Positions 592 through 63,141 of a stretch of 64,000 nucleotides of DNA are shown here, piece after piece. The stretch is taken from IMG/VR virus record IMGVR_UViG_3300044782_000023; one strand, 5' to 3'. A program made the translations under genes and the position numbers. The first letter of the stretch is position 1, and every line of letters starts with the position of its first letter. The stretch is from a virus. The notes under the pieces are model-generated. The model was not told where the DNA came from and did not search any database. It saw nothing but the letters and a program-made list of their open reading frames with translations.

Positions 592-1377
592 ATGATGAGA
601 AAACTCGCTGCTGTCGGCGCACTCGCGCTGGTCTGTACCGTACCGGCGGGCGCCGCGAACGCCGATCCTCCCGCCCTGCCCTGCACGGTGGATTACCGCA
701 TGTCCAGCCCGGCCGGTTACGCCGACACCAGCGGGCACACGTTCGTCGGCGGGCTGTCGATCGTGAACCGCTCGGTGGCGCTGGTCCGCACCAACTGCAC
801 CGCCCTGCCGACGGGGTCCACCTGGACGGTCAGTGGTCCCGGTTTCTCCGCCAGCGGCACCGAATCGAACCTAGTCCATGATGTGGTCGCGGTGACGCCG
901 CCGACGTCGAACCGGTCGGCCGGGCTGCGTGTCGACCGCGTTAAGATCCGCATCGTCACTCCAGCGGTCGTGAACGATCCGGCCACCCCGGTGGATGAGA
1001 CCGCCGTGGCAACGGACACGACCTTCTTCCGCGACATCCGGCTGAAGCGGCGGGTGATCGCGACCAAGACGGATGCGGCGCCGGAGCCGGTCCGGTTCGG
1101 CACAACGGTGACCGCGCAGTCCCGGTTCAGCGTCGCCGACTGGTCTGACCAGGATTACGTGGCGCTGTCCGGGCGGACGGTCCGGCTCCAGTCCAGGGAC
1201 CTGGCCGGGGTGTATGACGACAACCTGGTTGTGGCCACGGACGTCACGGACTCCCGTGGTGTGGCCAGCGTGTCGTTCGTCGATACCACCACTCAGGTCT
1301 GGCGGTTCGACTTCAAGGGCTCGGCCACGCTCGGTCATGTTGACGCGGTGGGCGATCTGGTCCGGGTCCGCCCGTAG
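592..1377 (+). CDS. secreted hypothetical protein, 261 aa
   Basis: Signal-peptide-like N-terminus (MMRKLAAVGALALVCTVPAGAANA-D), beta-rich mature part. Confidence 0.7.
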   Translation: MMRKLAAVGALALVCTVPAGAANADPPALPCTVDYRMSSPAGYADTSGHTFVGGLSIVNRSVALVRTNCTALPTGSTWTVSGPGFSASGTESNLVHDVVAVTPPTSNRSAGLRVDRVKIRIVTPAVVNDPATPVDETAVATDTTFFRDIRLKRRVIATKTDAAPEPVRFGTTVTAQSRFSVADWSDQDYVALSGRTVRLQSRDLAGVYDDNLVVATDVTDSRGVASVSFVDTTTQVWRFDFKGSATLGHVDAVGDLVRVRP

Positions 1378-1404
1378 ACAAGCGGTTGTCAACTGATATA
1401 CGAT
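1375..1404 (+). promoter_or_regulatory. sigma70-type promoter with operator palindrome, upstream of the packaging/structural operon
   Basis: TAGACA-18nt-TACGAT with GACAAGCGGTTGTC palindrome. Confidence 0.65.
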
Positions 1405-1444
1405 CACCCTGATTGGTGCAGCGAAATACCCGGTCGTCGTCGTC

Positions 1445-2083
1445 ATGCCTCAGCCGGGGGCACGCCGCCGATCGAACGAGGCCCCGCCGGTTCGCCGGTC
1501 GGGGCCTCGTCTTGTCACCTCGTCTATGCTGATCTCCATGGGTGGACCTGGAAGTGGTGGAGCGCGCGCTCGCAGTGGTGGGCCGCCGCCGGACCCGCAC
1601 GCGCTCGCGCGCCAGCGGGACGGCAAGGAATGGACGAAACTGCCGTCGGCTGGCCGGATGGGGGAACCACCGGAATGGCCGGATGAGGTCGTGGAGCCGA
1701 ACGAGAAGGAACTGCTGATGTGGCGGCGCATCTGGATGTCGCCGCAGTCGCTCGTCTGGGAAGCCGACCACGCGCAGGACATGGTCGCCTTCTACGTGCG
1801 GACCTACCTGGAGGCGATGAAGCCTCACGCTGGTGCGCAGGCTCGGACGTTCGTGAAGCAGATGTCGGAAGCGTTGCTGCTGAGCCCGGCCAGCCTCACC
1901 CAGCAGCGGTATGTGATCGACGGGACCCCTGAGGCTCGGGCGATCGATGCCGCCGTGGCTGACCATGCTGCGAATGCCCGCCGACGCGGCCCTGGCAAGT
2001 CGGCTCGCGAGCGCTTCACCGTTGTGCAGCCGCCCGACGATGAGCCGGAAACGGATGTCGCGTCCGAGGAACCTCCGTTCTGA
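1445..2083 (+). CDS. terminase small subunit (true start may be downstream)
   Basis: GGARARSGGPPPDPHALARQR motif typical of actinophage TerS; position before TerL. Confidence 0.7.
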   Translation: MPQPGARRRSNEAPPVRRSGPRLVTSSMLISMGGPGSGGARARSGGPPPDPHALARQRDGKEWTKLPSAGRMGEPPEWPDEVVEPNEKELLMWRRIWMSPQSLVWEADHAQDMVAFYVRTYLEAMKPHAGAQARTFVKQMSEALLLSPASLTQQRYVIDGTPEARAIDAAVADHAANARRRGPGKSARERFTVVQPPDDEPETDVASEEPPF

Positions 2084-2265
2084 TGGGGGCTCATCGGCGT
2101 ACTTTTGCCAGGCTGGAAAGTAGGCTGGCGATGGCTACCGACTCGGCGAGCCGAGACGCGATTCTCGACCAGTGGCTGGACGTATCAACGCTGGCCACGG
2201 ATTACGATGCCGACCAGTGGGGTCTGAACCCCGATGATCCGATGTGGCAGGTGGGTTCCGAGTGA
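2083..2265 (+). CDS. hypothetical protein, 60 aa
   Basis: TGATG overlap with terS; GTGA overlap with next ORF. Confidence 0.55.
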   Translation: MGAHRRTFARLESRLAMATDSASRDAILDQWLDVSTLATDYDADQWGLNPDDPMWQVGSE

Positions 2266-2564
2266 AATGCGTGAAGATTGATGTGGAGAGCGCCATCCCC
2301 GAGGGGGAACTGGCGGACGGGCTTTTCAGCACGTTCATGAAGAACGATCTAGCCAAGAAGATCATCGACCAGCATCGTCACCGTGCCGACGAGGCTGCCT
2401 CATCTGTCGGGGGTAGCGTTCGCACTGACCGGGTGCCGGAGTTCTACATCCGGCGCGGCTCGGACCTGGTCGAAGGCGGTGATTTCCTGCTGACCGCCTC
2501 CCGGTGGGACGTCTGGGTGCCGGATGGCTTTGACCCGAAGCGCGTGGACAGTGCGAGCCGGTAG
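2262..2564 (+). CDS. hypothetical protein, about 100 aa
   Basis: GTG start overlapping previous stop; TAGTG overlap with terL. Confidence 0.6.
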   Translation: MKCVKIDVESAIPEGELADGLFSTFMKNDLAKKIIDQHRHRADEAASSVGGSVRTDRVPEFYIRRGSDLVEGGDFLLTASRWDVWVPDGFDPKRVDSASR

Positions 2565-5500
2565 TGCCGCTGCCGGTTCCGCAGAATGAGTACCTGGTCG
2601 ATTTTCCCACGCTCTGGGTGGCGATCGACTGGGTTGAGCACCACTGCGTCATCCCTGATGGCTTCGCGAAAGGCCAGCCGTACGAACTGGCCGACTGGCA
2701 GACGTGGTTCTATGTCAACCATTACCGGATCAAGCCGACCGCTTCATTGGATGGTCGACCGGCGGTGGGCGCTCCCGCGTTTCACTACCGGCGGTCCCAG
2801 ATCGTCATGCCGCAGAAGGCGCTTGCTCTAGACACGCCGATCGCCACGCCGAACGGCTGGTCCACGATGGAGCGTCTGATCGTCGGTGACCTGGTGTTCG
2901 ATAAGGATGGCCAGCCGACCAAGGTGCTGTCCAAGTCGCATCGCTGGCTGACTGATACCTTCCGGGTCGAGTTTAGCGACGGCTCCAGCCTGATCGCTTG
3001 TGGTGACCACGAGTGGGTGATTGTTGGTCTGCCGAGCCGGGTCTCGACGATGGGATTGATGCCGGGAATGTCCGTGCCCGCCGTCCCGGCCTTTCATAAG
3101 CCTGAGCGCCGAATCACCGCGATCACGCCGATCGAACCGGTGCTGACGCAATGCCTGACGGTCGAGTCAACGACGCACACGTTCCTTGCTGGGTCGGAGA
3201 TGATTCCCACTGGCAACTCTGGCAAGGGTCCGTTAACGGCGTCTCAGTGCTGTCTTGAGGGAGTGGGCCCGGCGCTGTTCGCTGGCTGGGCAGTAGAGGG
3301 CGACGTCTATCGCTGCCGGGACCATGGCTGCCCTTGTGGGTGGGAGTACTGGTATGGCGCGGGCGAGCCGATGGGTGTGCCGTGGCCGACACCACTGATT
3401 CAGATCACGGCATTTTCTGAGGAGCAGCCGCTAGCGCTGGACACCCCGGTTCCAACGCCGACCGGCTGGAGCAGCGTCGGAGCATTGAAAATCGGAGACG
3501 AGGTCTTCGATCAGGATGGGATACGCCAGACGGTTCAGCGCGCGACTCGCGTCATCAATGGGCTTGAATGTTTTGAGGTGACTTTCTCGGATGGCGAGAA
3601 AATTGTCGCGTCTGCCGGTCATGGCTGGACTATGGAGCGGAAGACGTCCCATGGCGATCGCCATGAAGTGGTCACTGTCACCACGGAAGAGTTGGCCGAG
3701 ACATACCTGAACGCGCGATACCGGACGGGAGCGGGGGCCGAATGGGAACTTCCCCGCGCGGACCTGGCGCTTGACCCGTATCTGCTGGGGTTGTGGCTCG
3801 GAGATGGCAGCACGGCGGATTCGACAATCGCCTATGACTCCCGGCTTCGGGGAGAGATGGAATCTATTGTCAAGCCGTTGCTGGCTGAGCATGAAGAGAT
3901 CGTCTGGACGCAGTCTGGAGGCAACGAAGGTACTTTCAGGATTCGACGCCGATACGGTCACGATCTGCTTGATAAGAGTTGCGGGGCTTGCCCCCGTGGT
4001 GAGCCACGGGACTCCATGCGCGAAACACTCCGAAGCATCGGGGTGCTCGGAGACAAGCACATACCCGATATCTATCTTCGTGCTTCCGCTGCCCAGCGTC
4101 GTGGTCTGCTCCAGGGGATGATCGACTCTGATGGCCATGTTGAAGCAAACGGGCGGGCCGGTTTCACCAATACGAACCCCCGCATCATCGCCGGGCTGGA
4201 GGAATTGCTGACCAGTCTCGGATACGCGCACAATAAGCGTTGGGACCGGACGGCCAATGCCTGGCGGTTGTTTTTTGTCCCAACGAGCGAAGCGCCGGTA
4301 GCCCGGTTGGCGCACAAGGTGGTTCGCCGCCGGGGATCGGCCTGGAGATATGTCTCCGAGGTTCGGCCTGTGGAGTCCGTTCCAGTTCGGTGCATCGGCA
4401 TCGACACTGAGGAGCACCTGTTCCTAGTCGGTCGGCGAGCCGTCCCGACGCACAACACTGACAACGTTTATGGCGCGTTGAAGCCGATGATCGAAAACGG
4501 TCCGCTCGCCAATATCGTCCCCCGCGTCGGGGAGGAGTTTATGCGCTTGCCTGGCGGCGGACGAATTGACACCGTCACCAGCAACAATCAGTCGCGTCTG
4601 GGCCAGCGGGTTACGTTCGTACCACAAGATGAAGCCATGCATCTAGACACTCCTCTCCCAACCCCAACTGGCTGGACGACGATGGGCGAAGTGGAGGTCG
4701 GCGATCTGCTCATCGGAGCGGATGGACGACCCGTCCGCGTTATCAAGACGACCGAAGTCCAACACGGACGGATCTGTTATCGAGTGACGTTCAAGGATGG
4801 CACGTCTGTCGTTGCGAGCGACGGCCATCAGTGGCTTACTCGTGTTGCCGCGTCGGTGGCGAAGCCGCAGGTACGCACGACGGGTGACATGTTCAGCAAC
4901 CCGCTCACACCCAACAGTAGGCAGCCGCGCCGATTCTGCGTTCCCGCTCCTGAGCCGTATGACCTCCCCGAAGTCGACCTCCCCGTATCGCCATACCTCC
5001 TGGGCCTCTGGCTGGGCGACGGGCGCACCGGCAACATGGAGATCGCTGCCCATAACGATGAAGCCGAGGAGCTTTGTCAATATTTGATCGAAGATGGCGC
5101 GAGCGAGGCGCGCGTCTGGCGACGGCAGCCGAAGGTCCCCATCATCAAACTCTCGCGCAAGATGGGCTTCCAGGGAGATTTGCGGCCTGATTACGTCAAG
5201 CGCTTCCAAGCGCTGCCTGCTTATCGGCTGAAGCACATCCCTGAGGAGTACTTTCGCGCATCGCTGGAGCAGCGACTGATGCTGCTTCGCGGCCTGATGG
5301 ATTCTGACGGGCACTGCACAGCCACTGGGTTCTGTACTTTCGCGGGCAACGAGCAACTGACCGGCGACATGGTGCGACTACTGCGAACGGTCGGAATCAG
5401 CGTCCAAAACGTGAAGCGGGCCGACCCACGAGCACGGACTGGTTTTGGCTGGAAGGTGAACTTCACCCCAAGGAACGGAATGCAACCGTTCCGGCTCAAG

Positions 5501-9575: not shown

Positions 9576-9708
9576 TGCCTTGCGGTCCGCGATCCTATAT
9601 GCTGCATCCAGAAGTGATCACGGCGCGATACCACGATCACTCCCACACTTCGTCGGCGCGATGCCGACGCGCACGGCCAGCGCGAGGCTGGCAGACCAGG
9701 GAGAACGA

Positions 9709-12694: not shown

Positions 12695-12702
12695 GGGCTC
12701 CC

Positions 12703-33777: not shown

Positions 33778-35531
33778 GGCCGGGCTCCTTCGTTGTCGTC
33801 AGAACGCTCGTACGGGGTGTACGGGCTGGACGCGTCGTCTGGTGGTGGTATGTCGCTCGCGTCGACATGGACTTCGTAAGCGGCAGGTAAGGCGTTGACG
33901 ATGTGGCCGGTCAGGGGTTCGGCGTCCACCGTGGTCGGGGTCTCCGGCACGAACGCCGGAGTCGGGTGGTAAATGTTCGCCTGCACCACTGTTGGCGTGG
34001 TGACGTCCTCCGACAGGCGCTCCGGTTCCTGCACCTTGTCCTCCACGGCTTTCGCCACGGCAGCACCGGCGAACGACCCTCCGACGTAGGAGATCAACGC
34101 GGTCTTCAGCAGTCGACCGATGATGCTGTGACCGTCCGCGCGCCCGAAAGACACGATGGCTTTGAATTTCGCGATCGGTCCGATCGCGGCCCAGGCGATG
34201 CCGGTGCCGATCATCAGCAGCAGCAGCGACCACCACAGGCTCACGCCCGGCGCCATGCACGCTTGCAGGTAAACCCCGAACAGCCACGAGCCGACCGCTG
34301 CGATCAGCACATAGACGGTGGCCTGAATAGCGTTGTTGATCAAACCCATTCCCAACTCCTGCCCGGTTCGGCGACCGATGCGAGGCTGGAGGATGGCGGC
34401 TGTCAGGACCAGCCAGAAGATCGCCAGCATGACTAGGACAATCGCACAGGCGATCATCAGGATGGCAACGGCCAGGCGGATCGCGCAGGCCGCGACGACA
34501 GTCAGCAGTTCCACCACCGTTTCCGTCGAACCTGACTCCTGGCCAGTCAGGTACCTATAGGCCGTCGGATCTTCCGCTTCCACCTTCGCGGCGATGTCCT
34601 TGAACTGATCAGCCTTCGTCTTCGTCAGCGCTTCGCGGGCCTTCGGCTGATCCTTCGGGTCCAACGCGTTGATCGAGTCGAGTTCCGTCCAGGAGACCCT
34701 GGTGCTGGCCAGGAGGTCCGGCCCATAGGTGGCGGCCACCGGAGTCACGGCGCTACCGAAGTTACGTCGCAGCCACCCCTGGTACTGAACGTTCTTCACG
34801 ACCTGGTTGGTGGCCGCGTCCGAGGGGTTCGCGCCGTCGTTCAGCGTGGCCACCAGCGTCCCTGCGGCCGTCTGACTGACTTCCGATGCGAGCATCGGGG
34901 ACAGCAGCAGCAGGCTAGAGATGGTGATGACAATGAAAACCCAGCCGACATTAGTTGCGGCGGAAGACATGTCACCGCTCTGAGCGCGATACAGCAGGAC
35001 GATGGTGGCGAAGGTGATCGCTAACGCCAGGAAAGGAACGAGGATGCTGGTATTCACCACGCCGGTAGCACGAGCCGCGAAGTCGTCAAGGAACGCGACC
35101 ACCCATCCGGGCTCCCAGGCTCGCCGGTCCACCGAATCTGTCAGCGACACCAGGCCGTCACCGATCGAGGTGATGGTGTTCGCGATCGCCGAGTCGGCAG
35201 ACGCGTTCGTTATCCGCGCCCACGATGTGGGGTCGATCGCGCATCCCAAGTCGTAGGTGTGTGAGCGAAGGCCCGCGAAGCCGCCGGTACTCCAGATGTG
35301 GTCGGGTGAGTTGTCCGACGTGACGACGATGGGGCGTTCACCCAGGAGCCCGGCCAGGCCAGTCTCCGGGGTGGCTGCGAACGGCGCCTGCTTCGGACAC
35401 ACCTCAACTCCGGGGATGTCCACTGACCTGACTGCGGCATCCGACGACGATGCGGCCCAGACGATCAGCAGCAGCCCGGCCGCGCAAAAGAACAGGAACA
35501 ACCGCAACCGCGAGTTCCATCGGCGCTTCAC
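33774..35531 (-). CDS. VirB6/TrbL/TcpH-like polytopic membrane protein, 585 aa
   Basis: Signal/TM N-terminus, several TM helices, low-complexity C-tail; immediately downstream of VirB4. Confidence 0.65.
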   Translation of the reverse strand: MKRRWNSRLRLFLFFCAAGLLLIVWAASSSDAAVRSVDIPGVEVCPKQAPFAATPETGLAGLLGERPIVVTSDNSPDHIWSTGGFAGLRSHTYDLGCAIDPTSWARITNASADSAIANTITSIGDGLVSLTDSVDRRAWEPGWVVAFLDDFAARATGVVNTSILVPFLALAITFATIVLLYRAQSGDMSSAATNVGWVFIVITISSLLLLSPMLASEVSQTAAGTLVATLNDGANPSDAATNQVVKNVQYQGWLRRNFGSAVTPVAATYGPDLLASTRVSWTELDSINALDPKDQPKAREALTKTKADQFKDIAAKVEAEDPTAYRYLTGQESGSTETVVELLTVVAACAIRLAVAILMIACAIVLVMLAIFWLVLTAAILQPRIGRRTGQELGMGLINNAIQATVYVLIAAVGSWLFGVYLQACMAPGVSLWWSLLLLMIGTGIAWAAIGPIAKFKAIVSFGRADGHSIIGRLLKTALISYVGGSFAGAAVAKAVEDKVQEPERLSEDVTTPTVVQANIYHPTPAFVPETPTTVDAEPLTGHIVNALPAAYEVHVDASDIPPPDDASSPYTPYERSDDNEGARP

Positions 35532-38200
35532 AGCATCTCCTCGTCCAGTAGCCAGTGGTGAGACGACCCGGCTGGAGCCGGGTCGGTCAGCAGCGCCGCT
35601 TTCAGCGCCGGATGGTAGTCGACGTCGACGCGCATGCCGCCAACATTGCCGTCCACGTCACGGTGGACCCATTCGCCGGGTACGGACGTGGACAGGTTCA
35701 TCAGCACCCCGGCGTAGCGGGGGTCGGTCAAGCCGAGCATGGCCATGGCCTCCAGCGCGGGCTCCGTGCTGGCCATCCGGCCCGCGAATACCGACGCGAT
35801 GAAGTTCTTCAATTCGCCTGAAAGCATCTGCGGGTTGATGCTTTTGACGCCGAGAGCCACATACAGGTTCCACTTGCTGTGGTCGCGTCCCAGCCGGGAG
35901 AACATGCTGCGACCGGGCCCGGAGTCGGTGAGCGACTCCGCTTCGTCGAAGAACACCGCTGCCCGCTGCTCACGCGGCTTGGAGTAGATCAGCCGGTGGG
36001 TGTAGAGCGCGGTCAGGCGCAATACCGCGTCAGCGCCGATTTCCGTCGGGTTCCAATCCCGGCGCGGGGTCCCGTCGGCGGCCCGGACGATGCCCGGCGT
36101 GGTGATCACGGTGAGGGTCTTGCTGTACTGGCCGGGCTCTACCGTCACGCCCCGGGGCGGGAACAGCAGGCGCAGCAGCGGGGCCGTGCTGGCGTCTACC
36201 AGCGCCCCCGCGACCGCGTCGGCGTGTACGTCCTCCAGTGTCACCAGGTTGTCCACCAGGTCCCAGAGGGTGCTGGTGGTTTCCCAGCCGGATCGGTCGG
36301 CGTGACGACGGGCGGCCAAGCGCAGTGTCTCCCGGGTCCGGCCCGACTCCCGGCTCCCATCGGCGACCAGATCTTCGGGTAGGCACCGCAGGGCCATATC
36401 GATGGCCAGGTCACGGCGTTCGGACCGGGCCTGCTCTACAGCGTCAGCCCAGTCACCGGGTTCCGGGTGGTCGGCGCGATGCGGGATACCGATCAGGCCG
36501 GGCGGGCTCAGGATGCCCTTGCGCCCGGTCAGGAGATTGACTTCCTGGGAGACGGCGGCGATCTCTGGCAGGTCGCACAGTTTCGCCAGCGGACCGGACG
36601 GGTCGTTGATGATCGTCATGATGCCCCGGCGTACCAGGTTGTACGCGATCGCTCCGAAGAGGACGGACTTGCCGGACCCGAGAGTGCCGATCATCAGGTG
36701 CATGTTCTGCGCCCGTCCGGTCCGCAGTCCTTCTGTGGCGTAGTGCGGGTCATGCATGACCGGGCGGCGCGAAGCGCCACGGGTGTGCCCAAGGTACGGA
36801 CCACGCGAGTCCCCGACGCTGGCGGTGGCGTTGGCCATCCCAGCCGTCAGGTACGGCAGCCGCAGGCGACGCTGATAGCCGACCCGGTCGAACGGTTCGG
36901 CTATCACGGTCGACTGGAGCATGAAGGATTGGCAGTCGGCACCAGTGAAATCCATCCGCAGACCGCTGGCGCTATACATGTGAGTGAACGAGGCACAGCG
37001 TTCTTCCACGACATCGGCCGCCGACAGGATCATCACGCCGTCGCTGTTGTAGCGGTCCTGGCCGGTGATAATCACGTTGATCTGACCCTGGAAGCGGGTG
37101 GCTTCCAGGGCCTGACCGTTGACAACCTGGTCGCGAGTGTTCAGCGCGACAGCGATGCCGTTGTCGATGACGGCCGGTGGGGTTTCCTTGTGCCAGCCGT
37201 AGTCGCGTTTGATGAACTCCGCCTTCCGCAGTTCCAGTTCGACCTCCGCCTTCATCTCCTCACCGGAGCGGATTCTGCCGACGACGCTCCATTCCACTGG
37301 GAACGGCGCCCCCATAGCGTCCCGGACCGACTCGGCGTGCACCTGCCACGGCGGCAGCCCGTTCTCCGGGTAGTTCAAATCAGCCAGCCGGGCGACCGTT
37401 AGTACGCGAGCCGCTGTCGTCGTCTTCCGGCCGTTGGCCCACGAGGTGACCGCCACAGTGCGTCCGAAAGGGGTCTCCACCCAGCGGATATCGTTGCCGA
37501 GCGCGGGGATTGCCAGTTCGTCCCAGCCGGAACGGGCCTGCACGCCGACCGGCTGCGTTCCTGGAGCCAGCGAGCGCATCCGCAGCCAGCCCTGCTCGAA
37601 CTCGGTCATCGGGCGCGAGCCCGCCCACCCGGACACGACGTCCGACAATCGCTTGACGTCCTCCAGTACCGGCAGCAGTGCCGAATGCGGCGCCCCGCCA
37701 GCCCGGTACGCCTCCAGGTGCTTGCGCAGGTCGAACCGGCTGTTCACCCGGGCGTTCAGGGTGAAGTAGCGGAACACCACCTTGTCGTCCATGCCGGAGC
37801 GAGCGATGACGTCCTGCTGGCGGACCAGGTGCGAGTTCCAGGTCTCGCACCCGCATCGGCCGCGCAGCAGGTCGCCCTTGGGCATCGACAGGTCGCAGGT
37901 GTGCACGTCCGGTGTCGGCGCGGGAGTCCTGGCGTCAAGTTGCGCCGCCCATGACTGGACGGGGTGTGGCCGGGTGGAAACCCGTTCGTGGTAGAACCGC
38001 CCGGCCAGGTTGCTGAAGACGTCAGCGTCCTGGTTCATCCGGGAGATTTTTGCGTCGTTTCCGGTGAAATCCCAGCGGGCAGGGCCGATCCGGTACCCGG
38101 CCCAGATGGTGCCGTCCTTCTGTACGGTCAGGTTCTCGATGATCTCCCGGGCGTTCGGGGCTAGCGGGGGCTGCTTGTGCTTCCACATCAGATCGTCCAC
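35528..38200 (-). CDS. VirB4-like (TcpF/ConE) conjugation ATPase, 890 aa
   Basis: Walker A GTLGSGKS, NDPSG, Walker B VFFDEAE, RDHSKWN...FIASVFAGR; size and context. Confidence 0.82.
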   Translation of the reverse strand: MDDLMWKHKQPPLAPNAREIIENLTVQKDGTIWAGYRIGPARWDFTGNDAKISRMNQDADVFSNLAGRFYHERVSTRPHPVQSWAAQLDARTPAPTPDVHTCDLSMPKGDLLRGRCGCETWNSHLVRQQDVIARSGMDDKVVFRYFTLNARVNSRFDLRKHLEAYRAGGAPHSALLPVLEDVKRLSDVVSGWAGSRPMTEFEQGWLRMRSLAPGTQPVGVQARSGWDELAIPALGNDIRWVETPFGRTVAVTSWANGRKTTTAARVLTVARLADLNYPENGLPPWQVHAESVRDAMGAPFPVEWSVVGRIRSGEEMKAEVELELRKAEFIKRDYGWHKETPPAVIDNGIAVALNTRDQVVNGQALEATRFQGQINVIITGQDRYNSDGVMILSAADVVEERCASFTHMYSASGLRMDFTGADCQSFMLQSTVIAEPFDRVGYQRRLRLPYLTAGMANATASVGDSRGPYLGHTRGASRRPVMHDPHYATEGLRTGRAQNMHLMIGTLGSGKSVLFGAIAYNLVRRGIMTIINDPSGPLAKLCDLPEIAAVSQEVNLLTGRKGILSPPGLIGIPHRADHPEPGDWADAVEQARSERRDLAIDMALRCLPEDLVADGSRESGRTRETLRLAARRHADRSGWETTSTLWDLVDNLVTLEDVHADAVAGALVDASTAPLLRLLFPPRGVTVEPGQYSKTLTVITTPGIVRAADGTPRRDWNPTEIGADAVLRLTALYTHRLIYSKPREQRAAVFFDEAESLTDSGPGRSMFSRLGRDHSKWNLYVALGVKSINPQMLSGELKNFIASVFAGRMASTEPALEAMAMLGLTDPRYAGVLMNLSTSVPGEWVHRDVDGNVGGMRVDVDYHPALKAALLTDPAPAGSSHHWLLDEEML

Positions 38201-39317: not shown

Positions 39318-39347
39318 AGAGTAGCAGACTTGACAACCGCTTGACAA
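39318..39347 (-). promoter_or_regulatory. promoter/operator for the T4SS-like operon
   Basis: TTGTCA-18nt-TACTCT on minus strand, containing AAGCGGTTGTCAA. Confidence 0.65.
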
Positions 39348-41250: not shown

Positions 41251-41292
41251 AATGTACATGGATTGACATGAGGTTGTCAACTGAAGTACAGT
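41251..41292. promoter_or_regulatory. overlapping divergent promoters (switch region)
   Basis: Plus: TTGACA(41263)-18-TACAGT; minus: TTGACA(41280)-18-TACATT; shared TTGACA-N6-TGTCAA palindrome. Confidence 0.75.
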
Positions 41293-41332: not shown

Positions 41333-41563
41333 ATGGCCAAGGCCAAGCGATATACGGAGCAGTTCTCTTTCGTGGGGACCTCCACCGCCTACGAACTCCT
41401 GCGCGCCGTCGCAGACCAGTCCTACACCGACAAGGCGCCGGTCGTGCGCGCTGGGATCGACCTGCTGTTCGGCCTGGCCGACGGCGAACTGCGGCCCGGT
41501 GACACGTTCGAAGCCGCGGTCGCGCGGGTGGTCAACCACATACAGCCGGTCGCGGCTCCGTAG
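41333..41563 (+). CDS. ribbon-helix-helix-like DNA-binding protein, 76 aa
   Basis: GGAGG RBS; alternating strand TEQFSFVG then two amphipathic helices; monocistronic. Confidence 0.55.
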   Translation: MAKAKRYTEQFSFVGTSTAYELLRAVADQSYTDKAPVVRAGIDLLFGLADGELRPGDTFEAAVARVVNHIQPVAAP

Positions 41564-44395: not shown

Positions 44396-44683
44396 ATGAG
44401 TAAGCCCACTGTCAGAGGGTACTTTCAGCCCGTCAAGGATCGGCTGAACAACGTGATGCTGATCCGCGTGGCGTGCGAACCCTGCAACCGATGGCATGCG
44501 CACGGAGATGGCTCTTTAGACGAGGACCGGACTCCTGTAGGCGAGTTGACTCACCGGTCAAGCCATTGCGTCGACCCACAGAACTACCCCAATGGCTATT
44601 GGATCGAGATCCAGCCCGACCCCTACGATCCTCGATGGTCGGCGCCTCGCGGGAAGATTAGCACCGCCTATCGACGTAGTTGA
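44396..44683 (+). CDS. Zn-binding hypothetical protein
   Basis: GAGGA RBS; CEPCNRWHAHG. Confidence 0.6.
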   Translation: MSKPTVRGYFQPVKDRLNNVMLIRVACEPCNRWHAHGDGSLDEDRTPVGELTHRSSHCVDPQNYPNGYWIEIQPDPYDPRWSAPRGKISTAYRRS

Positions 44684-44709
44684 CAAGCGGTTGTCATGCT
44701 AGATATGAT
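44680..44709 (+). promoter_or_regulatory. promoter/operator
   Basis: TTGACA-18-TATGAT with TGACAAGCGGTTGTCA. Confidence 0.7.
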
Positions 44710-49480: not shown

Positions 49481-50068
49481 ATGCCGCCGAAGATCTGTAC
49501 CCGCTGCAAGGGCGCCGACAAGGCCCCGGGGAAACAGAAATGCTACGAGTGTCTGATGCTGGAGCAGTCGCCGTACGCCCAGGAAATGGACGCCGAGCGT
49601 CGTCTGGCGTGCGTTCCGGTCGAGATGCGGCTGGAGCGGGTGCCGAACACCCAATGGCCGACCGGCCGCCGCTGGTGTTCCGGCTGCCAGTCGTTCCGGC
49701 GGGTCGTGGACTGTGTTGGTTCGCGGTGCCAGGTGTGCGCTGGCCGGGCAGCCTGGGAGGCGATGCTCCCGCGCACGTACAAGATCGGGCTGTCGGACGG
49801 TTCGGTGCGTCCGTTCACCGCCGACGATTACCGGGTGCTGTACCGGGAGTGCGGTGGCCGGTGTCCGATCTGCCACCGGAAGGTGGTGTCCAAACGGATG
49901 GCAGTTGACCATGACCATGAAACCGGGTTAGTACGAGGACTTTTGGACGCCTCGGATGACTGGGGATGCAACCGGGCGGTGCTCGGGAACATTAGAGACC
50001 TGGCGATGGCCCGGCGGATCGTGGAGTACCTGGAATCTCCGCCCGCCGTCCGCATCATTACCAGTTGA
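49481..50068 (+). CDS. recombination endonuclease VII-like protein
   Basis: CPICH...VDHDHETGLVRGLL...CNRAVLG plus N-terminal CxxC pairs. Confidence 0.82.
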   Translation: MPPKICTRCKGADKAPGKQKCYECLMLEQSPYAQEMDAERRLACVPVEMRLERVPNTQWPTGRRWCSGCQSFRRVVDCVGSRCQVCAGRAAWEAMLPRTYKIGLSDGSVRPFTADDYRVLYRECGGRCPICHRKVVSKRMAVDHDHETGLVRGLLDASDDWGCNRAVLGNIRDLAMARRIVEYLESPPAVRIITS

Positions 50069-50094
50069 CAAGTGGTTGACAAGTCTCGTAGTCT
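50065..50094 (+). promoter_or_regulatory. promoter/operator
   Basis: TTGACA-18-TAGTCT. Confidence 0.65.
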
Positions 50095-50744: not shown

Positions 50745-50805
50745 TCACCTACTGATCTCTGACAACAACTTGACAAGCGCTTGGCAACCGTGGGAGGATG
50801 GGTCC

Positions 50806-53946: not shown

Positions 53947-56622
53947 TCATGACGTCACCAGTTCCTTGAAGTTGTCGGGCAGAAGGCATGTCGGCATTCC
54001 GAGGCGGAGAAGAGTGGTCCAATCCTCTTCGGTGTTGGTGTAGTTCGGGTCGGCGTCCGCCGGACATGGCAACCAATAGGCTTGGCATTCGACGGGCGTG
54101 CCGTCACCGATCTGTACGGTGGCCCGGCCTTTCGCCTTGCTGGGCACATCGCGGCCGACGCCTGAGTCTCCGTAGATCATCAGGGCTCGGATGCCGTCGA
54201 TGGCACCAACGGTCGCTCGGCCCGGCAGGTTCTGCCGAACACCGGACGTACCGAACATCTGCGAGTCCGGGCTCTGCGTGCTGATGATGATGTGGATGCC
54301 GCACTTGCGGGCCATCGCAATGACGTCGGCCAGCGCCCGGATCGCCCCGGGGACCTTCTCGCCCGGCCGCTTGAGCGGATTATCATCGTCATCCTTCTCT
54401 CCAGACGTCCATACATCGAACACCCGGTCGTAGTAGGCCTTGAACTCGTCGAAGACGCAAATCCACTTCTCGTGGCTGTCAAGGGGTATGCCGCGCTCCT
54501 CGAAAGCGGTGTAGCGGCGGTCCATCTCGCGCTGGATCATGAACGCGACATCCCACAGGTCGCGGGGCTTGGTCACGATACTCTTCACGCCGGGCCAGCC
54601 CCGGAAGCCCACCATCTCCACTCGCTTCGGGTCCGACAGAATCAGGCGAACCTCCTTGCGGGAGGCCGAATCAGAGGCGGCGGCGATGATGGAGCGGAGG
54701 ATTGAGGTGTTATGCGTCGGGACGCATGCCTCTCCCGCCAGATACAGGCTGCTGGCGGAGTCCACTGTGATGCACCGGACGGGGACGCTCTCGACTGGAT
54801 TGACCGCGACGATGGAACGACGTCGAGACTTCCCATCGCTGACGGCGATGCCCTGACGATCCAACTTCCGAGGATTGCGGAAGACTGCTTCATGTGCGGT
54901 GAAACAGATCCGGTATGCCGTCGAACTGGCTTCGGTGCGACCCTTGCAGCGCTTGGTTCTCATGGTGGCCTTGAATCCCAGCCCCCGAGATAGTTCGAGA
55001 ACACCCCTGGCCAGTTTCTCGCTGGTCGACGTGTATTCGACGGTCCCCAGCGCAACATTCCCATCGCCGTCAAACAGACCGGCGAGCAACGCCTTCCGCT
55101 GCTCGATCGAGCCCCGGAGGTACGCCTCGGGAATGTGCTTGTTTCCCCACACGCCGAGCCTGCGCAGCCGAGACTCCACACCATCCCTCGTGACTGAAAC
55201 GGCGAATCGGACGTCATGGGCATCAGACCTCGGGTCTTTCCGTACTGAAGTGATCCGTGCGACCTTGCCGATCTCCTCGATCATGAAAGCAAGATCCTGT
55301 CCACCTGTGGTGAAGGACGCCTTCGTGCTTCCACCGTCTGCAAGCCACGTTCCGAACAGATAGGGATCTAGCGGCAGTTCCTGCGCTGGGTAATCAAGCG
55401 GACCGGCGATGGGAATCGCATGGTTGCGGGCGCCATCCTTGCGGCCGACTAACGTGGCGCGGACTTCCTCTGTCGTGCGTACCTGTGGCGGCCTGTCGTA
55501 CATCCGGCTGGCCGTCGTACTGGTCAGCCAGTTATGATCCGCGTCGGCGACGATCGTCGCTCCATCGCTGAAGACGACCTCGTAGCATGGACGTCCGTAC
55601 CGGACCTGATGAGCGTAGACAACGCGGCACGCCTTGCCGTCCTCGTCGAAAACCTCCTGACCCTGGACCAGTTCGCCCATGGTCGCCCAGCCCTTCGGCG
55701 TTGGCACGGGGGTGTCAAGCGCCAGGGCCTTCCCACTGTTAGTTTCTCCGATGATCAGCAAGTGGGACGTGTCCATCAGGTTGAATGAAACCCCGTCGGC
55801 GATCGGCAGAACGTACCAGGGGCGGCCCTCTTCCAGCCCAGGATGGTGAACTATCTTCGGCATCGCCGGACGTCGGGTGAACGACGCGCGGTCGTTCTGG
55901 GTGTCCCAGTCGGCGATCCAGCGGTCCCCGATCTTGGCCTGGATCTTGTTCAGCAGATCGAACCGCTTGTCGCTCTCATGGTCGGGGAATCCCGTGCCGA
56001 TGTAGGACACAGTGAAGGCGTTCATGCCCTGCACGTTGAGAATGCGCACGTCCCCCTTGGGGCCGACCGCTTCTCGCACGGCCATGACGATCCGTGCGAC
56101 GTCCAGTCCGCCGGGCTCGTCCTGCGAAACCGGTGAAATGGTTTTCCGGGGGCGGCGGCGCGCTGCACCTTTCTGGACCAAATAGGTGCCGAATGTGGCA
56201 CCGATGGACAGGCCTGACCAGAGCGCCCACTCCCGCGCGGTCGCCTCGTCGTGCTGAAACACGCTCTGCCAGGTGTACCCACCGAGGATCATTGACCCCG
56301 ATCCATACACCAGGCTTGGGGTCCATCGGTGCGGAACCCGGTTGCGCCGGGCGCGGTCGGCCGCCTCACGCGCCGTCTTCTTCTTGTGGCAGGACGTCAG
56401 CCGAGTGGACCCCTTCGGATTGCACAGCACCTGGAGGTTATCCGGGTCCGTGCGCTGCTCGGGCGTACTCTCGCTCTCCGGAATGATGTGGTCGATGTTG
56501 ACCGCGGATATGCTGAAGTACTTCCGGCACCCGGCGCATTGGTACCTGCGTGGGTCGCTCTTATGCTGGGCGAGGTCCAGCACGAGGCGCCGGGTGGCCG
56601 GGAGCAGTTTCGTCTGACTCAT
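53947..56622 (-). CDS. HNH nuclease - 2 TM - FtsK/SpoIIIE-type ATPase fusion with intein (891 aa precursor, about 551 aa spliced)
   Basis: CAGC...NIDHIIP...NLQVLC...CHKKKT; spliced Walker A GETNSGK/T, DPKRVE, Walker B VFDEF, ARKCGIHIIISTQ. Confidence 0.82.
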   Translation of the reverse strand: MSQTKLLPATRRLVLDLAQHKSDPRRYQCAGCRKYFSISAVNIDHIIPESESTPEQRTDPDNLQVLCNPKGSTRLTSCHKKKTAREAADRARRNRVPHRWTPSLVYGSGSMILGGYTWQSVFQHDEATAREWALWSGLSIGATFGTYLVQKGAARRRPRKTISPVSQDEPGGLDVARIVMAVREAVGPKGDVRILNVQGMNAFTVSYIGTGFPDHESDKRFDLLNKIQAKIGDRWIADWDTQNDRASFTRRPAMPKIVHHPGLEEGRPWYVLPIADGVSFNLMDTSHLLIIGETNSGKALALDTPVPTPKGWATMGELVQGQEVFDEDGKACRVVYAHQVRYGRPCYEVVFSDGATIVADADHNWLTSTTASRMYDRPPQVRTTEEVRATLVGRKDGARNHAIPIAGPLDYPAQELPLDPYLFGTWLADGGSTKASFTTGGQDLAFMIEEIGKVARITSVRKDPRSDAHDVRFAVSVTRDGVESRLRRLGVWGNKHIPEAYLRGSIEQRKALLAGLFDGDGNVALGTVEYTSTSEKLARGVLELSRGLGFKATMRTKRCKGRTEASSTAYRICFTAHEAVFRNPRKLDRQGIAVSDGKSRRRSIVAVNPVESVPVRCITVDSASSLYLAGEACVPTHNTSILRSIIAAASDSASRKEVRLILSDPKRVEMVGFRGWPGVKSIVTKPRDLWDVAFMIQREMDRRYTAFEERGIPLDSHEKWICVFDEFKAYYDRVFDVWTSGEKDDDDNPLKRPGEKVPGAIRALADVIAMARKCGIHIIISTQSPDSQMFGTSGVRQNLPGRATVGAIDGIRALMIYGDSGVGRDVPSKAKGRATVQIGDGTPVECQAYWLPCPADADPNYTNTEEDWTTLLRLGMPTCLLPDNFKELVTS
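54709..55728 (-). mobile_element. class-3 intein with LAGLIDADG endonuclease (340 aa) in the FtsK P-loop
   Basis: ALALDTP start, DHNW, VRCITV, VPTHN/Thr+1; LFGTWLADG and LAGLFDGDG. Confidence 0.92.
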
Positions 56623-56780
56623 GACCGACCTTCCTGTCCGACGCCCCGACACAGGCGAGTATCGGAGTCGGCGGCGAAATGTGGAGCGATCGTACGATCA
56701 TCGTTGACGCGCTTGATCTTTCCGCATGCTGGGCATGTCGCCACGTCATCTATGACGTGGCGACCCTTGCGATCGAACAT
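56619..56780 (-). CDS. 53-aa Zn-ribbon-like protein (absent from ORF track)
   Basis: MFDRKGRHVIDDVATCPACGK...PH...C; GGAGG RBS; TAATG and ATGA overlaps. Confidence 0.55.
   Translation of the reverse strand: MFDRKGRHVIDDVATCPACGKIKRVNDDRTIAPHFAADSDTRLCRGVGQEGRS
56737..56764. repeat. perfect 13-bp inverted repeat with 2-nt spacer
   Basis: GTCGCCACGTCAT-CT-ATGACGTGGCGAC. Confidence 0.9.
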
Positions 56781-57082: not shown

Positions 57083-57112
57083 AGAGTACATCTGTTGACA
57101 TTGGCCTGTCAA
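57083..57112 (-). promoter_or_regulatory. promoter/operator for the HNH-FtsK operon
   Basis: TTGACA-18-TACTCT with TTGACA-N6-TGTCAA palindrome. Confidence 0.7.
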
Positions 57113-58416: not shown

Positions 58417-58898
58417 GATTCCAACTTCCTGATCAGCGCCAGCAGAGCGCGGGCGGTTGACGGCTTCAGCCGAACGACGGTGTCACCGGACGCGGTGACG
58501 TGACTGGTGATCATTTCGACCAGTTCCCTGTCGGCGGCGCTCATCCGGCTACCCGCCTTGGCCTGCTCGATCGACTTGAACGGGCGCACGATCCGCCCGA
58601 GGACGTGCGCGTGCAGGACGTACACGCCGGAGCCGTTGCGTCGGTCCAACTTCAGGGCCACGACGGCGTCGCCCTTATGCATGGACGACAGCGCTCCGGA
58701 GACTTTCCCGTGGTGCTCTCCGGTTAGCACCTCGATCTCCGCCGATGTGGCCCCGATGGGGCCGCGCTCGGCGAGGATCTGAAGAATCCTCCGTTGACGC
58801 CGGGCGAGCGCACCGGATTCGACGGCCTGCTCGGCGGCTTCCTTGGACTGCTCGACCGGTACGTAACCGGCCGTGCCGTTGTAGGGGGCGCTGGTCAT
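58410..58898 (-). CDS. winged-helix DNA-binding protein
   Basis: RQRRILQILAERGPIGATSAEIEVLTGEHHGKVSGALSSM. Confidence 0.65.
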   Translation of the reverse strand: MTSAPYNGTAGYVPVEQSKEAAEQAVESGALARRQRRILQILAERGPIGATSAEIEVLTGEHHGKVSGALSSMHKGDAVVALKLDRRNGSGVYVLHAHVLGRIVRPFKSIEQAKAGSRMSAADRELVEMITSHVTASGDTVVRLKPSTARALLALIRKLESC

Positions 58899-58996
58899 GA
58901 GATGATCTCCCTTGTCGTCATGGCTAGAGTCAACCACGAATGACAAGCGGTTGTCAAGTCTACGACGGGCTCCGGCAGGTCACCCCGCAACAGGAA

Positions 58997-59917: not shown

Positions 59918-60457
59918 CAGAGCATCGCCTTCAGGTTCATGATCTTCTGGTAGTGCATGTCTGCGACCTCCTGGAAATCGATCTCGCGTCCTTGATTCTG
60001 GGCTGTGGCTTGGCTGTTGCGGGCTCGGGCACAAGCAAGACAATTCCGCCTGGGAAGGACGGACGGAACGAGATTTGGCTCCCGCAATGGATGACGCCGG
60101 GGGCAGTGTTTCTTGCTGGTCGAGAAGTGAGTGCCGTGCCCTACGCTGTCGCGTCGGTTGTCACTCCGAGTGCCCCAGCGCAGATTGCTCAGCACGTTAT
60201 TGGATGGATCGCCATCGCCGTGACAACACTCCTGCCCGGCTGGACAGGGGCCAACGAACGCCTGCAGTACGAGGCGATGGATTCGTCTGCCTTTTCCCTT
60301 CAGGTTGACATAACGACGCCCACTCTTCTGGGTCATGATCTTCAAGATCTGGCCCGAGAGCGCCCGTCCGAAAATCGAACGACATGCGGCAGACTCCGGA
60401 CTCGACCCTGGTCGGACACCTCGTAGACGTCCTGACCGGAAGCCAACGTTCTGTCAT
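59917..60457 (-). pseudogene. NUMOD4-HNH homing endonuclease disrupted by two frameshifts
   Basis: MTERWLPV / QDVYEVSDQGRVRSLP / SGQILK...IHRLVLQAF...CCHGDGDPSNNVLSNLRW lie in three different frames. Confidence 0.75.
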
Positions 60458-60705
60458 TTGTCCAGCATGGAGCGAAGTTCGGCCTTGATGCGCTGGGCGT
60501 CGGGGCCGGTGAAACTGCGGGCGTTGTTGAGGAAGTAGCGGACGATGTACCTGGCGTCGTCAGCGCCGTACGTGTCGTCGATGCTTTTGAGGTGGAACAT
60601 CGCTGCCAGGTACGGCTCGGCGGCGAAGTTGACACCGTTGCCCCTCCCGGACCAGATGGCGTTGATTTCTTCGGCGATCTCATAGAGTTTCCGGTTGGTA
60701 GCCAT
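60454..60705 (-). CDS. hypothetical phage protein, 83 aa
   Basis: GAAAGGA RBS; FAAEPYL...YFLNNA. Confidence 0.65.
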   Translation of the reverse strand: MATNRKLYEIAEEINAIWSGRGNGVNFAAEPYLAAMFHLKSIDDTYGADDARYIVRYFLNNARSFTGPDAQRIKAELRSMLDK

Positions 60706-60842
60706 AGGTCATCCTTTCATCGGTGACGAACAGTTGTCAAGTGGTTGTCAGGTCAGGTGTGGGTCGCGGAACAGCACGCCATCCTGGTGGAACTGCTCAT
60801 GAACCTCATGCTGGAACAGGTCCATGATCTGAATGGTGATCG

Positions 60843-61441: not shown

Positions 61442-61471
61442 ACTCTACATCCGATGACAAGTGGCTGTCAA
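61442..61471 (-). promoter_or_regulatory. promoter/operator
   Basis: TTGACA-18-TAGAGT. Confidence 0.65.
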
Positions 61472-61515
61472 GCCGGTCAGGCCCGCGCGGATTGCCAGAG
61501 GGGTCTCGTCAACGG

Positions 61516-61722
61516 TCACCGCCTGACGCCTACATACACCGAAATCGTTTCCGTGCCCACGCGGACGGCGTGGCCGGTGGCAGCGGCGTGGTCCTTGACG
61601 TCCTGAAGAGTGTGCGGTCCGGACGCGCGCTCGAACCGGCAGTAGTCACAGACGGCTGCATCGTGACGACCATGGATCGCTGGGCCTTGTACGGGGTTGT
61701 CATGTATCCATGGTGGCGACAT
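61516..61722 (-). CDS. small Zn-finger-like protein
   Basis: CDYC...H...H motif. Confidence 0.45.
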   Translation of the reverse strand: MSPPWIHDNPVQGPAIHGRHDAAVCDYCRFERASGPHTLQDVKDHAAATGHAVRVGTETISVYVGVRR

Positions 61723-61761
61723 GACAACCGCCTGTCAACTAGGTGTTGATAGGCTGACCGG

Positions 61762-62349
61762 ATGGCAGAACCTCCAGAGTCCCCCGCCTTGGGCCGTCCG
61801 GTGAAAGATCCAACTTCCAACGTCATGGATCTGGTGCAGGCCGCCAACCGGCGCCAAGACGACCTACGCGAGATGGAGGCCCGCAGCCTGCGCCATGAGA
61901 TGGGACTGCGGGCCGAGTTCGACGAAAAACTGCGGCTGGCCGAGTCGGCGCGGATCGACGCGATCCGACTGGTCGACACCCAGCAGGTCCAGCGAGCAGC
62001 CGAAGTGCAGGCTGCACAGGCGCTCGCGCTGGCTACCCAGGTGGCGACATCGGCCGAAGCGCTGCGGACTCAGGTAGCGACATCGGCCGAAGCGCTGCGG
62101 ACACAAGCAGTGGCGGCACAGATCCAATCCGACGCGAAACTGGCCGAAGCGCTCGACCCAGTCCGACGCGATATCGCGGACCTGCGCAAGGTCCAATACG
62201 AGACAGCAGGCGGGAAGACCCAGGTCGTCGAGGCGCGATCCACGACGGATCAGGCTCGACTCAACATCGGAGCCATCCTTGGGGCTGCATCGGTGTTCAT
62301 GGTGCTCGCGTTCGGCATTGCGTCCGTGGCTATAGCACTGGCTCGCTAG
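61762..62349 (+). CDS. C-terminally membrane-anchored coiled-coil protein, 195 aa
   Basis: Helical QVATSAEALRT duplication; C-terminal TM. Confidence 0.6.
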   Translation: MAEPPESPALGRPVKDPTSNVMDLVQAANRRQDDLREMEARSLRHEMGLRAEFDEKLRLAESARIDAIRLVDTQQVQRAAEVQAAQALALATQVATSAEALRTQVATSAEALRTQAVAAQIQSDAKLAEALDPVRRDIADLRKVQYETAGGKTQVVEARSTTDQARLNIGAILGAASVFMVLAFGIASVAIALAR

Positions 62350-62749
62350 CCACGACGGCTTCCCAGCCGAGCATCGTCAGCGCCTCCCCCAGACCCGACC
62401 AGCGCAGGACCTTCCCCACAGGAACACCCCGGGAGTTCACCCGCTGCGTGTACGCGCCGTCGGCGCTCACCCGGACGACATACCCGTCCAACAGGCAGTA
62501 TGGGTGCACCTCATCGGTCAACCAGTGCAGACCACGCTCGGCCCGCCTGCCCGTAGTGCTGCGGACTGCGAGCACCGTGGCATCCTGCTCGGTAGCACGG
62601 ACCGTACTGGCCGCCGTGGACAGATCAGGATGAGCATCCAAGACCACCACGTACCTGCCGTCACCCGTGGCGGACGTGACCGTGCCGAACTTATCCAACC
62701 AGGGGAACAGCCATGTGCTGCCGGTCAGTTGTACACGTGCGCCGATCAT
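62330..62749 (-). CDS. hypothetical protein, 139 aa
   Basis: AAGGAG RBS. Confidence 0.55.
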   Translation of the reverse strand: MIGARVQLTGSTWLFPWLDKFGTVTSATGDGRYVVVLDAHPDLSTAASTVRATEQDATVLAVRSTTGRRAERGLHWLTDEVHPYCLLDGYVVRVSADGAYTQRVNSRGVPVGKVLRWSGLGEALTMLGWEAVVASEPVL

Positions 62750-62804
62750 CAGGTCTCCTTCGCGTCCAATCCAAGACCACACACGAAGGAGACCTGATAC
62801 ATCA

Positions 62805-63068
62805 TCAGGCATCGATCTTCACCGGGCGCCAGCGGATGTAACGCTGGATTTCCTTGAGGTTGCACTCCAGCGAAGATCGAAACCACGTGCCGACCACGCA
62901 CTTAGTGACCGTCGCGTACGTACCGTCCCCGAACCGGACCTCAATCCGGTCCACGAACGTACTGTCTGGGTCTACCCAACGAAGGGCCAGCACGTCCCAG
63001 GGCGTGGGGCTCTCCTCGGTCCAGCCGCGTTCCAGGCCGACCTTCAGGATCTCGTCTCGTAGTGTCAT
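62805..63068 (-). CDS. hypothetical protein, 87 aa
   Basis: Downstream of motif copy at 63097-63113. Confidence 0.5.
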   Translation of the reverse strand: MTLRDEILKVGLERGWTEESPTPWDVLALRWVDPDSTFVDRIEVRFGDGTYATVTKCVVGTWFRSSLECNLKEIQRYIRWRPVKIDA

Positions 63069-63141
63069 AGGTTCAGAGTGCCGACCTGCCGACCACTTGT
63101 CAAGCGGTTGACAGGTCAGCCTGCCGGGCTGTCCCTGCTAC

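Follow-up and report, generated by a model that had tools for sequence, protein, structure and literature searches.

TTGWCAA boxes at 11-bp spacing overlap the -35 element of predicted promoters throughout an uncultured actinobacterial phage lineage with a VirB4/FtsK conjugation-like module

The ribbon-helix-helix (RHH) repressors Arc and Mnt of phage P22 and CopG of pMV158 act on short repeated boxes that overlap promoters. In the C1 operators of phage P1 and the KorA/KorB regulon of RK2, one regulator acts through a dozen or more operators and coordinates replication, transfer or lysis, and maintenance. The RHH protein omega (ParB) of pSM19035 recognizes 7-bp boxes of the sequence 5'-WATCACW-3', in direct or inverted orientation, which overlap promoters, and two omega dimers occupy two repeats (PMC9499535). 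The stoperators of phage L5 have the consensus 5'-GGTGGc/aTGTCAAG (PMC5712189); these sites are single asymmetric 13-mers that are bound by a monomer, lie mostly inside operons and act on elongation (PMC9283540). The boxes of the response regulator MtrA have the consensus kTrACC-N5-GTkACn (PMC5650626), which resembles sites in one of the phage relatives described below (G004). Here we describe a short box, TTGWCAA, that recurs in twos and threes in the predicted promoters of an uncultured phage, analyzed as a 64,000-nt stretch of DNA (the window; IMG/VR record IMGVR_UViG_3300044782_000023; G+C content ~64%). A full-text literature search with the box sequences returned no account of this operator.

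The motif TGACAANNNNTTGTCA (TGACAA-N4-TTGTCA), with two mismatches at most, matched the window 15 times at 12 loci, all of which were intergenic or at the start of a called gene. Dinucleotide shuffles gave a mean of 1.2 matches and a maximum of 5, and none of the 100 shuffles reached 15. Tolerating a third mismatch added only 10 matches, which is chance level. The original prediction, made from the letters of the window alone, had listed about 12 intergenic copies and proposed a comparison with shuffled sequence; every one of the 15 matches fell at the 12 listed loci, and the enrichment (15 observed, 1.2 expected) was confirmed. Protein-guided searches of IMG/VR revealed the following five relatives, in which a reversed-pattern control gave 0-1 matches.

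G001: 60.9 kb; VirB4 67% identical; 20 motif matches
G002: 25.9 kb; VirB4 92% identical; 3 motif matches
G003: 80.7 kb; VirB4 66% identical; CheckV 100% complete; 20 motif matches
G004: 77.9 kb; 127-bp direct terminal repeats; 29 motif matches, 28 arrays
G005: 40.8 kb; 4 motif matches

As G004 is bounded by its 127-bp terminal repeats, we consider it a complete virion genome. The relatives were syntenic with the window and their proteins were 35-90% identical to those of the window. Arrays of the same boxes were also found in four further metagenome contigs carrying homologues of the winged-helix gene described below.

The real unit of the motif is a self-palindromic heptamer, TTGWCAA, which is present in two or three copies exactly 11 bp apart. 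When 7-mers with at most one mismatch from TTGWCAA were counted and their pair spacings tallied, 12 pairs at 11 bp were found in the window against 0.05 expected per spacing, and no other spacing occurred except the 22 bp within three-unit arrays. Three relatives gave 18, 15 and 24 pairs at 11 bp, again with 22 bp from the triplets. Three-unit arrays were present at three loci of the window (50760/50771, 60724/60735 and 63087/63098). The motif had originally been described as a palindrome, which was correct for the window, where nine of the 15 matches were inverted (A..T), but not for the relatives, in which direct repeats (A..A) were as frequent or more frequent and predominated in G003 and G004. 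The central base of the spacer box was T in 85% of cases in the window group, and T or A about equally in G001 and G003; in G004 it was A in 80% of cases, and the boxes other than the -35 box were there mostly asymmetric yTGACCA in direct orientation. Since the central base of the box is free, direct repeats are often seen in the relatives, and the palindrome is a property of the window genome and not of the element. The free central base would also suit a reading head with two-fold symmetry on each box.

In promoter orientation, one box was the -35 element (TTGACA), the next box was always within the spacer, and the third box, where present, was one helical turn upstream. The arrays of the window are as follows; L-numbers denote contigs.

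1375..1404, + strand: P(terS), TAGACA (-35, unit 1), a TTGTCAA unit in the spacer, 18 nt, TACGAT; predicted to drive terS (1445) and the ~30-kb virion operon; orthologous array and leader kept in G004 at 57906
39318..39347, - strand: P(virB4 module), TTGTCA-18 nt-TACTCT, aligned with the orthologous promoters of G001, G002, G003 and G004; preceded by a terminator-like hairpin at 39358-39372
41251..41292, both strands: one two-unit array shared by two back-to-back promoters, rightward TTGACA-18-TACAGT (41263, RHH-like gene) and leftward TTGACA-18-TACATT (41280); bidirectional arrangement also in G002; arrays precede the RHH-like gene in G001, G003 and G005
44680..44709, + strand: array downstream of the Prim-Pol gene, TTGACA-18-TATGAT; orthologues G002 5128, G001 19292 and G003 42973
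50065..50094, + strand: array downstream of the endonuclease VII gene, TTGACA-18-TAGTCT; orthologues G001 25627 and G003 35837
50759..50799, + strand: three-unit array CTGACAA, TTGACAA, TTGGCAA, then GAGGAT with ATG 6 nt on, possibly a leaderless start; orthologues G001 27439 and L013 16029
57083..57112, - strand: P(ftsK operon), TTGACA-18-TACTCT; orthologues G001 40291, G003 20739, L011 13362 and L012 2851
58928..58957, - strand: array upstream of the winged-helix gene with a conserved atypical -10 region, TTGACTCTA; orthologues, all three-unit, G001 43330, G003 17640, L011 9672 and L013 6442
60711..60751, - strand: three-unit array, TTGACA-18-AAGGAT, ATG 5 nt on; precedes an 83-aa gene (60454-60705); orthologue G003 15410
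61442..61471, - strand: array TTGACA-18-TAGAGT; orthologue G003 14018
61710..61738, - strand: two-unit array; orientation and -10 uncertain (CACCAT at 17 nt)
63087..63113, - strand: two good units and one weak unit upstream of an 87-aa gene (62805-63068), without a convincing -10

The eight promoters that had been quoted with an 18-nt spacer were all present as described, at 1375, 39347(-), 41263, 41280(-), 44680, 50065, 57112(-) and 61471(-), and the second half-site claimed to lie inside the spacer was found in every promoter-oriented array. The spacer of exactly 18 nt held for the window, whereas in the relatives it was 17 or 18 nt. We surveyed 99 arrays from nine sequences and found nAnnnT 17-18 nt after a box in 81 of them (82%), compared with 11% at random positions; the offset profile of the -10 peaked at 17 nt (38) and 18 nt (48). 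The -35 was TTGACA in most promoter-oriented arrays, with A at the box centre in 94% and near-invariant positions 0-5, figures that carry an ascertainment bias because the arrays were found via the -35 box itself. Overall, the arrays combined a -35 and a -10 of SigA type (TAnnnT or nAnnnT at 17-18 nt, within the 16-19 nt of SigA promoters), and their predicted direction matched the next gene at 11-12 of the 12 window loci. Almost every transcription unit thus appears, from its sequence, to start at the same host-type promoter bearing two or three boxes.

Downstream of the -10, ACGAC was found at a distance of 7-10 nt in 37 of 89 arrays, most strongly in G004 (18/25), against a background of 3.8%; its position, at the predicted +1 to +4, would fit a fixed start site and lends the predicted starts indirect support. 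An initial sequence (c)ATGACGACGA(A) was conserved after the -10, for example at G004 516, 63398 and 72207 and at 58914-58921 in the window; the ATG within it was the start codon in some arrays and not in others, and this sequence could represent either a conserved 5' leader or an additional control element. Some arrays had an ATG 5-6 nt past the -10, so that their messages may be leaderless. Directly before the -35 of many arrays in the window and relatives, including the VirB4-module promoter in four genomes, there was a GC-rich hairpin with a T-run, and such hairpin-array pairs look like compact terminator-promoter junctions between transcription units. The transcript data consisted of contigs of one metatranscriptome run with low and patchy depth, in which uncovered stretches (39000-40333 and others) were uninformative and no start or end pile-ups were reported. 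One RNA contig ended at 57067, ~8 nt inside the predicted start of the FtsK operon, where DNA contigs continued, which is weak evidence from contigs only.

The shared design also raised an explanation of the opposite sign, in which the spacer box would be a positive or specificity element and a bound phage protein or modified polymerase would be required, as with the MotA boxes of phage T4. Practically all transcription units of the phage share the design, the poor -10 hexamers at 58941, 63098 and 61722 might need help, and a generic sigma-70 scan of 38.5-64 kb gave five sites that all coincided with arrays, at a count not above that of shuffles. Most arrays, however, have a perfect TTGACA, good spacing and TAnnnT, and should work unaided. 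From promoter geometry in general, a protein bound around -22 to -27 on the side of the polymerase would usually be expected to block transcription, not to activate it. We therefore regard a positive role as improbable.

The box architecture was conserved at orthologous sites although the proteins were only 35-67% identical. Orthologous arrays were found before the VirB4 module, the RHH-like gene, the FtsK operon and the winged-helix gene, and after the Prim-Pol and endonuclease VII genes, while the array before the terminase operon was common to the window and G004, together with a shared leader sequence. The claim that a single cis-element family links the terminase/virion operon, the VirB4-type module and the FtsK operon is thereby upheld, and the family extends to early and replication units. 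As a general feature of related actinophages, the arrays were rejected, since Arthrobacter phage Karkharias, the nearest isolate by portal, has none. The marker genes of the two conjugation-like units are as follows.

35528..38200, - strand: VirB4-like AAA_10 ATPase, marker gene of the module under the 39331 array
53947..56652, - strand: HNH-FtsK/SpoIIIE ATPase, intein-bearing, in the operon under the 57096 array

In alignment, the VirB4 module, which resembles a type IV secretion system (T4SS), carried an array promoter in the window and in G001, G002, G003 and G004; in G005, a motif match was present ~1 kb upstream of the VirB4 gene. The module spans 32062-39347 in the window, 7195-14532 in G001, 11388-18973 in G002, 48783-56473 in G003 and ~23000-30400 in G004. 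It was opposite to the tail genes in the window and G003 and co-directional with them in G001, G002 and G004, and the promoter moved along with it. The original prediction that the conjugation module is co-adapted rather than chimeric is borne out by this arrangement, as the module has its own array promoter in five genomes and was inverted together with it; the module is therefore native to the lineage and not an assembly chimera.

The inversion, with an array at one end of the module, could also suggest that the repeats serve as recombination or packaging sites or act via an RNA or DNA hairpin, and the A..T versions of the window do fold to a 6-bp hairpin (-5.5 kcal/mol). A motif scan found no array at the opposite end of the module, which gives no support to an inversion mediated by the arrays. 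The predicted starts would leave the boxes untranscribed from their own promoter, and the direct-repeat versions of G001, G003 and G004, which form no hairpin (0 to -0.2 kcal/mol), are nevertheless conserved at the same positions. A hairpin role was rejected on this last ground, and we consider the whole explanation extremely improbable.

The following two proteins of the window are candidate regulators.

41333..41563, + strand: candidate 1, RHH-like protein, 76 aa
58410..58898, - strand: candidate 2, winged-helix (MarR/ArsR-like) protein, 162 aa

Judged from sequence and structure models, both are DNA-binding-type proteins, and both are putative readers of the boxes. Both genes carry arrays in their own promoters. 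The RHH-like protein belongs to a rare family with seven homologues and showed the predicted order strand-helix-helix, with a strand motif K/R-Y-T-x-Q that was kept in most homologues (T to P in G004). Its AlphaFold2 (AF2) monomer, with a mean predicted local distance difference test (pLDDT) of 61, had helices at 17-33 and 35-45 after an unstructured N-terminus and was too poor for a fold search. The homodimer model scored 0.58 compared with 0.00 for the best control, with contacts that agreed to at least 95% between runs, a partner pLDDT of 75-76, and a symmetric interface formed by residues 6-23 and 34-46 of both chains; in this model the protein forms an intertwined homodimer with paired N-terminal strands. 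That mark, obtained with an alignment made in this analysis, was attained by 20 of 30 solved homodimers but also by one of 23 single chains of solved structure; a resemblance to known RHH dimer structures may account for it. Atlas feature matches reached 0.94 to clusters named CopG/RHH. An array was present at most 70 nt upstream of the RHH-like gene in five genomes. The promoter of this gene in G004 (L025 1790-1830; G004 19610-19700) is TTGACA-18-TATGGT, with TTGAC boxes at 8-bp instead of 11-bp spacing, TTGACAGGTTGACATGACGTCAAC; by its sequence, this would be a different operator geometry at a putatively autoregulated promoter.

The winged-helix protein 58410-58898 might instead read the boxes, by itself or, sharing operators with the RHH-like protein in a CI/Cro-like pair, as the maintenance repressor. 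Its winged helix-turn-helix fold was modeled confidently (pLDDT 87; three helices and a beta hairpin), Foldseek matched the model to MepR, MarR and ArsR (E 2e-3 to 5e-2, probability 0.9-1.0), and MarR_2 was found in 14 of its 29 homologues, with the query itself below the Pfam thresholds. Sequence searches of the PDB with both candidates found nothing useful. The recognition helix HGKVSGALSSMHK is highly conserved, and the promoter of the winged-helix gene has a conserved three-box array and a weak -10 in five genomes, which is typical of an autoregulated repressor. Two-box arrays suit the geometry of a MarR-type dimer on a 16-20-bp palindrome, whereas three-box and direct-repeat arrays do so less, and a middle box shared within three-box arrays is awkward for a classical dimer on a 16-bp palindrome. 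In addition, G003 alters the conserved K of the helix while its boxes are unchanged, and distant homologues with a similar helix exist in Microbacterium phages, in which no arrays were found in the regions read. We consider it unlikely that this protein, rather than the RHH-like protein, is the reader.

Presence and absence failed to separate the candidates, as both are present in G001, G003 and G004. Two weak arguments slightly favored the RHH-like protein as the binder. First, a symmetric box with a free centre, used in either orientation and in twos and threes, resembles box usage by omega-type RHH proteins. Second, all six inspected contigs with RHH homologues bore arrays (the seventh homologue, P0003 on a 3.2-kb contig, was outside this inspection), while the winged-helix family extends to the array-less Microbacterium phages.

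We propose, with a probability of roughly 0.55, that the boxes are operators of one phage repressor embedded in SigA-type promoters, with the RHH-like protein as the preferred binder and the winged-helix protein as the second choice; both may act on the same boxes. The arrays would be the standard promoters of the phage, with a host SigA-type -35 TTGACA and a -10 TAnnnT or nAnnnT 17-18 nt apart, and with two or three TTGWCAA boxes on one helix face by their 11-bp phasing. With one box coinciding with the -35 and the next occupying the spacer, a sequence-specific phage protein on each box would cover the DNA from -35 to about -20 and exclude RNA polymerase. One RHH-like dimer would bind each self-palindromic box, and adjacent dimers would cooperate, as with Arc, CopG or omega. 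The virion, VirB4/T4SS-like, FtsK, replication and small early units, as well as the regulator's own gene, would thus be placed under one negative control. We infer repression, rather than activation, because a near-consensus SigA promoter needs no activator and because a protein on boxes at -35 and ~-22 should exclude the polymerase.

Several observations weigh against this proposal. Pfam RHH_1 matched only one of the seven RHH-like homologues (E=0.047), a PDB profile search with the RHH-like protein found nothing relevant, and by sequence the RHH fold of 41333-41563 is not established. Both candidates are present in every complete array-bearing genome. One contig of the RNA library crosses the 44681 promoter uninterrupted. 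A single repressor on every promoter, including the sole promoter of the late operon, needs an extra step for the timing of expression. The asymmetric direct yTGACCA boxes of G004 fit a head-to-tail reader better than a symmetric one. Finally, the motif is nearly unchanged while both candidate proteins drift to 35-49% identity, and phage repressor-operator pairs often diverge faster than this; such near-invariance beside diverging candidates leaves room for a conserved host factor.

The boxes could accordingly be sites of a host OmpR/PhoB-type response regulator such as MtrA, so that host signaling gates the phage program and no phage repressor is needed. A motif held nearly invariant across phages with such divergent candidates is what a conserved host protein would produce. 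Exact 11-bp phasing with two or three units per array is a hallmark of OmpR/PhoB-type boxes, which are 6-7-bp repeats, and the predominance of direct repeats in G003 and G004 points in the same direction. The G004 sequence TTGACA-N5-yTGACC partially matches the Streptomyces MtrA consensus G/T-T-G/A-A-C-C-N5-G-T-G/T-A-C-N (PMC5650626). In the window, however, 85% of the spacer boxes have the opposite orientation to the -35 box, and some of the resemblance to the MtrA box is trivial, since TTGACA is the -35. Moreover, the arrays are absent from Karkharias and co-occur with a lineage-specific gene set. We therefore judge a host regulator of this type to be improbable, and its stronger form, in which every promoter of the lineage, including those of the virion and T4SS-like units, is wired to a conserved host response regulator with MtrA-like boxes, to be slightly more so. 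If this were true, host cell-cycle or envelope signaling would decide between silence, virion production and conjugation-like transfer.

The gene content of the window was consistent with a tailed phage. The + strand encodes the small terminase, the large terminase (2564-6694, 1376 aa, with LAGLIDADG/Hint inserts), an SPP1-type portal and an HK97-type capsid, with a tail region downstream. The module on the - strand encodes the VirB4-like AAA_10 ATPase and an SLT+VanY hydrolase, and beyond it are a Prim-Pol/D5 replicase, the HNH-FtsK ATPase with an intein, and a DUF2637 protein. LAGLIDADG homing-endonuclease segments or Hint segments occur in both the large terminase and the HNH-FtsK ATPase (901 aa); at ~560 and ~555 aa, the orthologues in G003 and G001 are shorter than the insert-bearing window copy (2564-6694 and 53947-56652), and the segments are therefore intein-like inserts of the window copy only. 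A tRNA-Met (CAT) gene (155-228) precedes a gene for a secreted protein (592-1377) and the promoter of the terminase operon. No integrase turned up among the window proteins scanned, and no repressor family was found among ten small early proteins with PHROGs and Pfam.

The portal is 57% identical to portals of Arthrobacter phages. No DNA-level relative among isolated phages was found when 50 kb of the window was compared by megablast with 50,697 phage records, tblastn found no match in phage records for the VirB4-like and RHH-like proteins, and no relatives emerged when 185,579 species genomes were scanned with VirB4 and winged-helix profiles. The window DNA was found again in sediment and freshwater metagenomes of many studies, and among the sources searched (species genomes, isolated phages and metagenomes) the lineage is known from such metagenomes only. 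The window represents an uncultured actinobacterial phage that combines a tailed-virion module with a VirB4/FtsK conjugation-like module, which is an unusual combination.

The arrays provide a ready-made and testable map of the transcription units of this lineage. The array promoter on the VirB4 module, present in five contigs from separate IMG/VR metagenome records, indicates that the module is integral and co-regulated and not an assembly artefact. The design is compact, with the -35 serving at the same time as one member of a set of two or three identical boxes that are spaced by one helical turn, and if the proposed repression is true, the arrays would be a useful set of repressible promoters for high-GC Gram-positive hosts.

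Compared with omega and the other RHH repressors, the proposed system would share a small dimeric protein (here a candidate), one dimer per short box, boxes in direct or inverted orientation that extend over the -35 and spacer of several promoters, among them the promoter of the regulator itself, and neighboring dimers on one face of the DNA. Unlike the contiguous heptads of omega, which have a 7-bp period, the boxes here have an 11-bp period, the -35 hexamer is itself one box, and 12-29 promoters per genome are involved, including those of virion and T4SS-like operons; support for an RHH fold of the candidate is tentative, and its binding to the boxes is putative. The P1 C1 and RK2 KorA/KorB systems differ from the present one in their single 12-17-bp sites, unrelated proteins and Gram-negative hosts.

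L5, a Cluster A mycobacteriophage (gp71, an operator and ~24 stoperators), likewise carries one short site in more than 20 copies across an actinophage genome, and its operator overlaps the -35 of Pleft as the boxes here overlap the -35. The stoperator GGTGGc/aTGTCAAG and GYGGYTGTCAAG of the window are strikingly alike, and the right half of our motif is nearly the stoperator. We found GTGGCTGTCAA at 61461 and a further lone copy at 54472-54482 inside the FtsK gene, and CTTGACAGCCAC (61457-61472, in the 61455 array), when reverse-complemented, is identical to the first 12 bases of the L5 consensus; additional L5-like half-sites inside genes were at chance level. In contrast to L5, the sites here are paired or tripled symmetric heptamers, 82% of them in promoter position. 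No homologue of L5 gp71 was found in the window, in G001-G004 or in their proteins (tblastn and phmmer; best E 0.37). A gp71-like repressor was rejected on these grounds, as no homologue was found and the sites are unlike the single asymmetric 13-mers of L5, which are mostly outside promoters and oriented with transcription, and because no gp71-like protein is encoded, the likeness is probably convergence.

The boxes of MtrA and of PhoP/GlnR share with ours the 6-7-bp units, the 11-bp period, the two or three units per site and the possible overlap with promoter elements. Those boxes, however, belong to host regulons with oriented direct repeats, whereas the boxes here have a free centre and the window arrays are mostly inverted; the phage encodes no OmpR/PhoB-type response regulator. 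One regulator with many operators is a familiar kind of phage control; what is new here is the arrangement of heptamers phased at 11 bp, one of which is the -35, together with the lineage that carries it.

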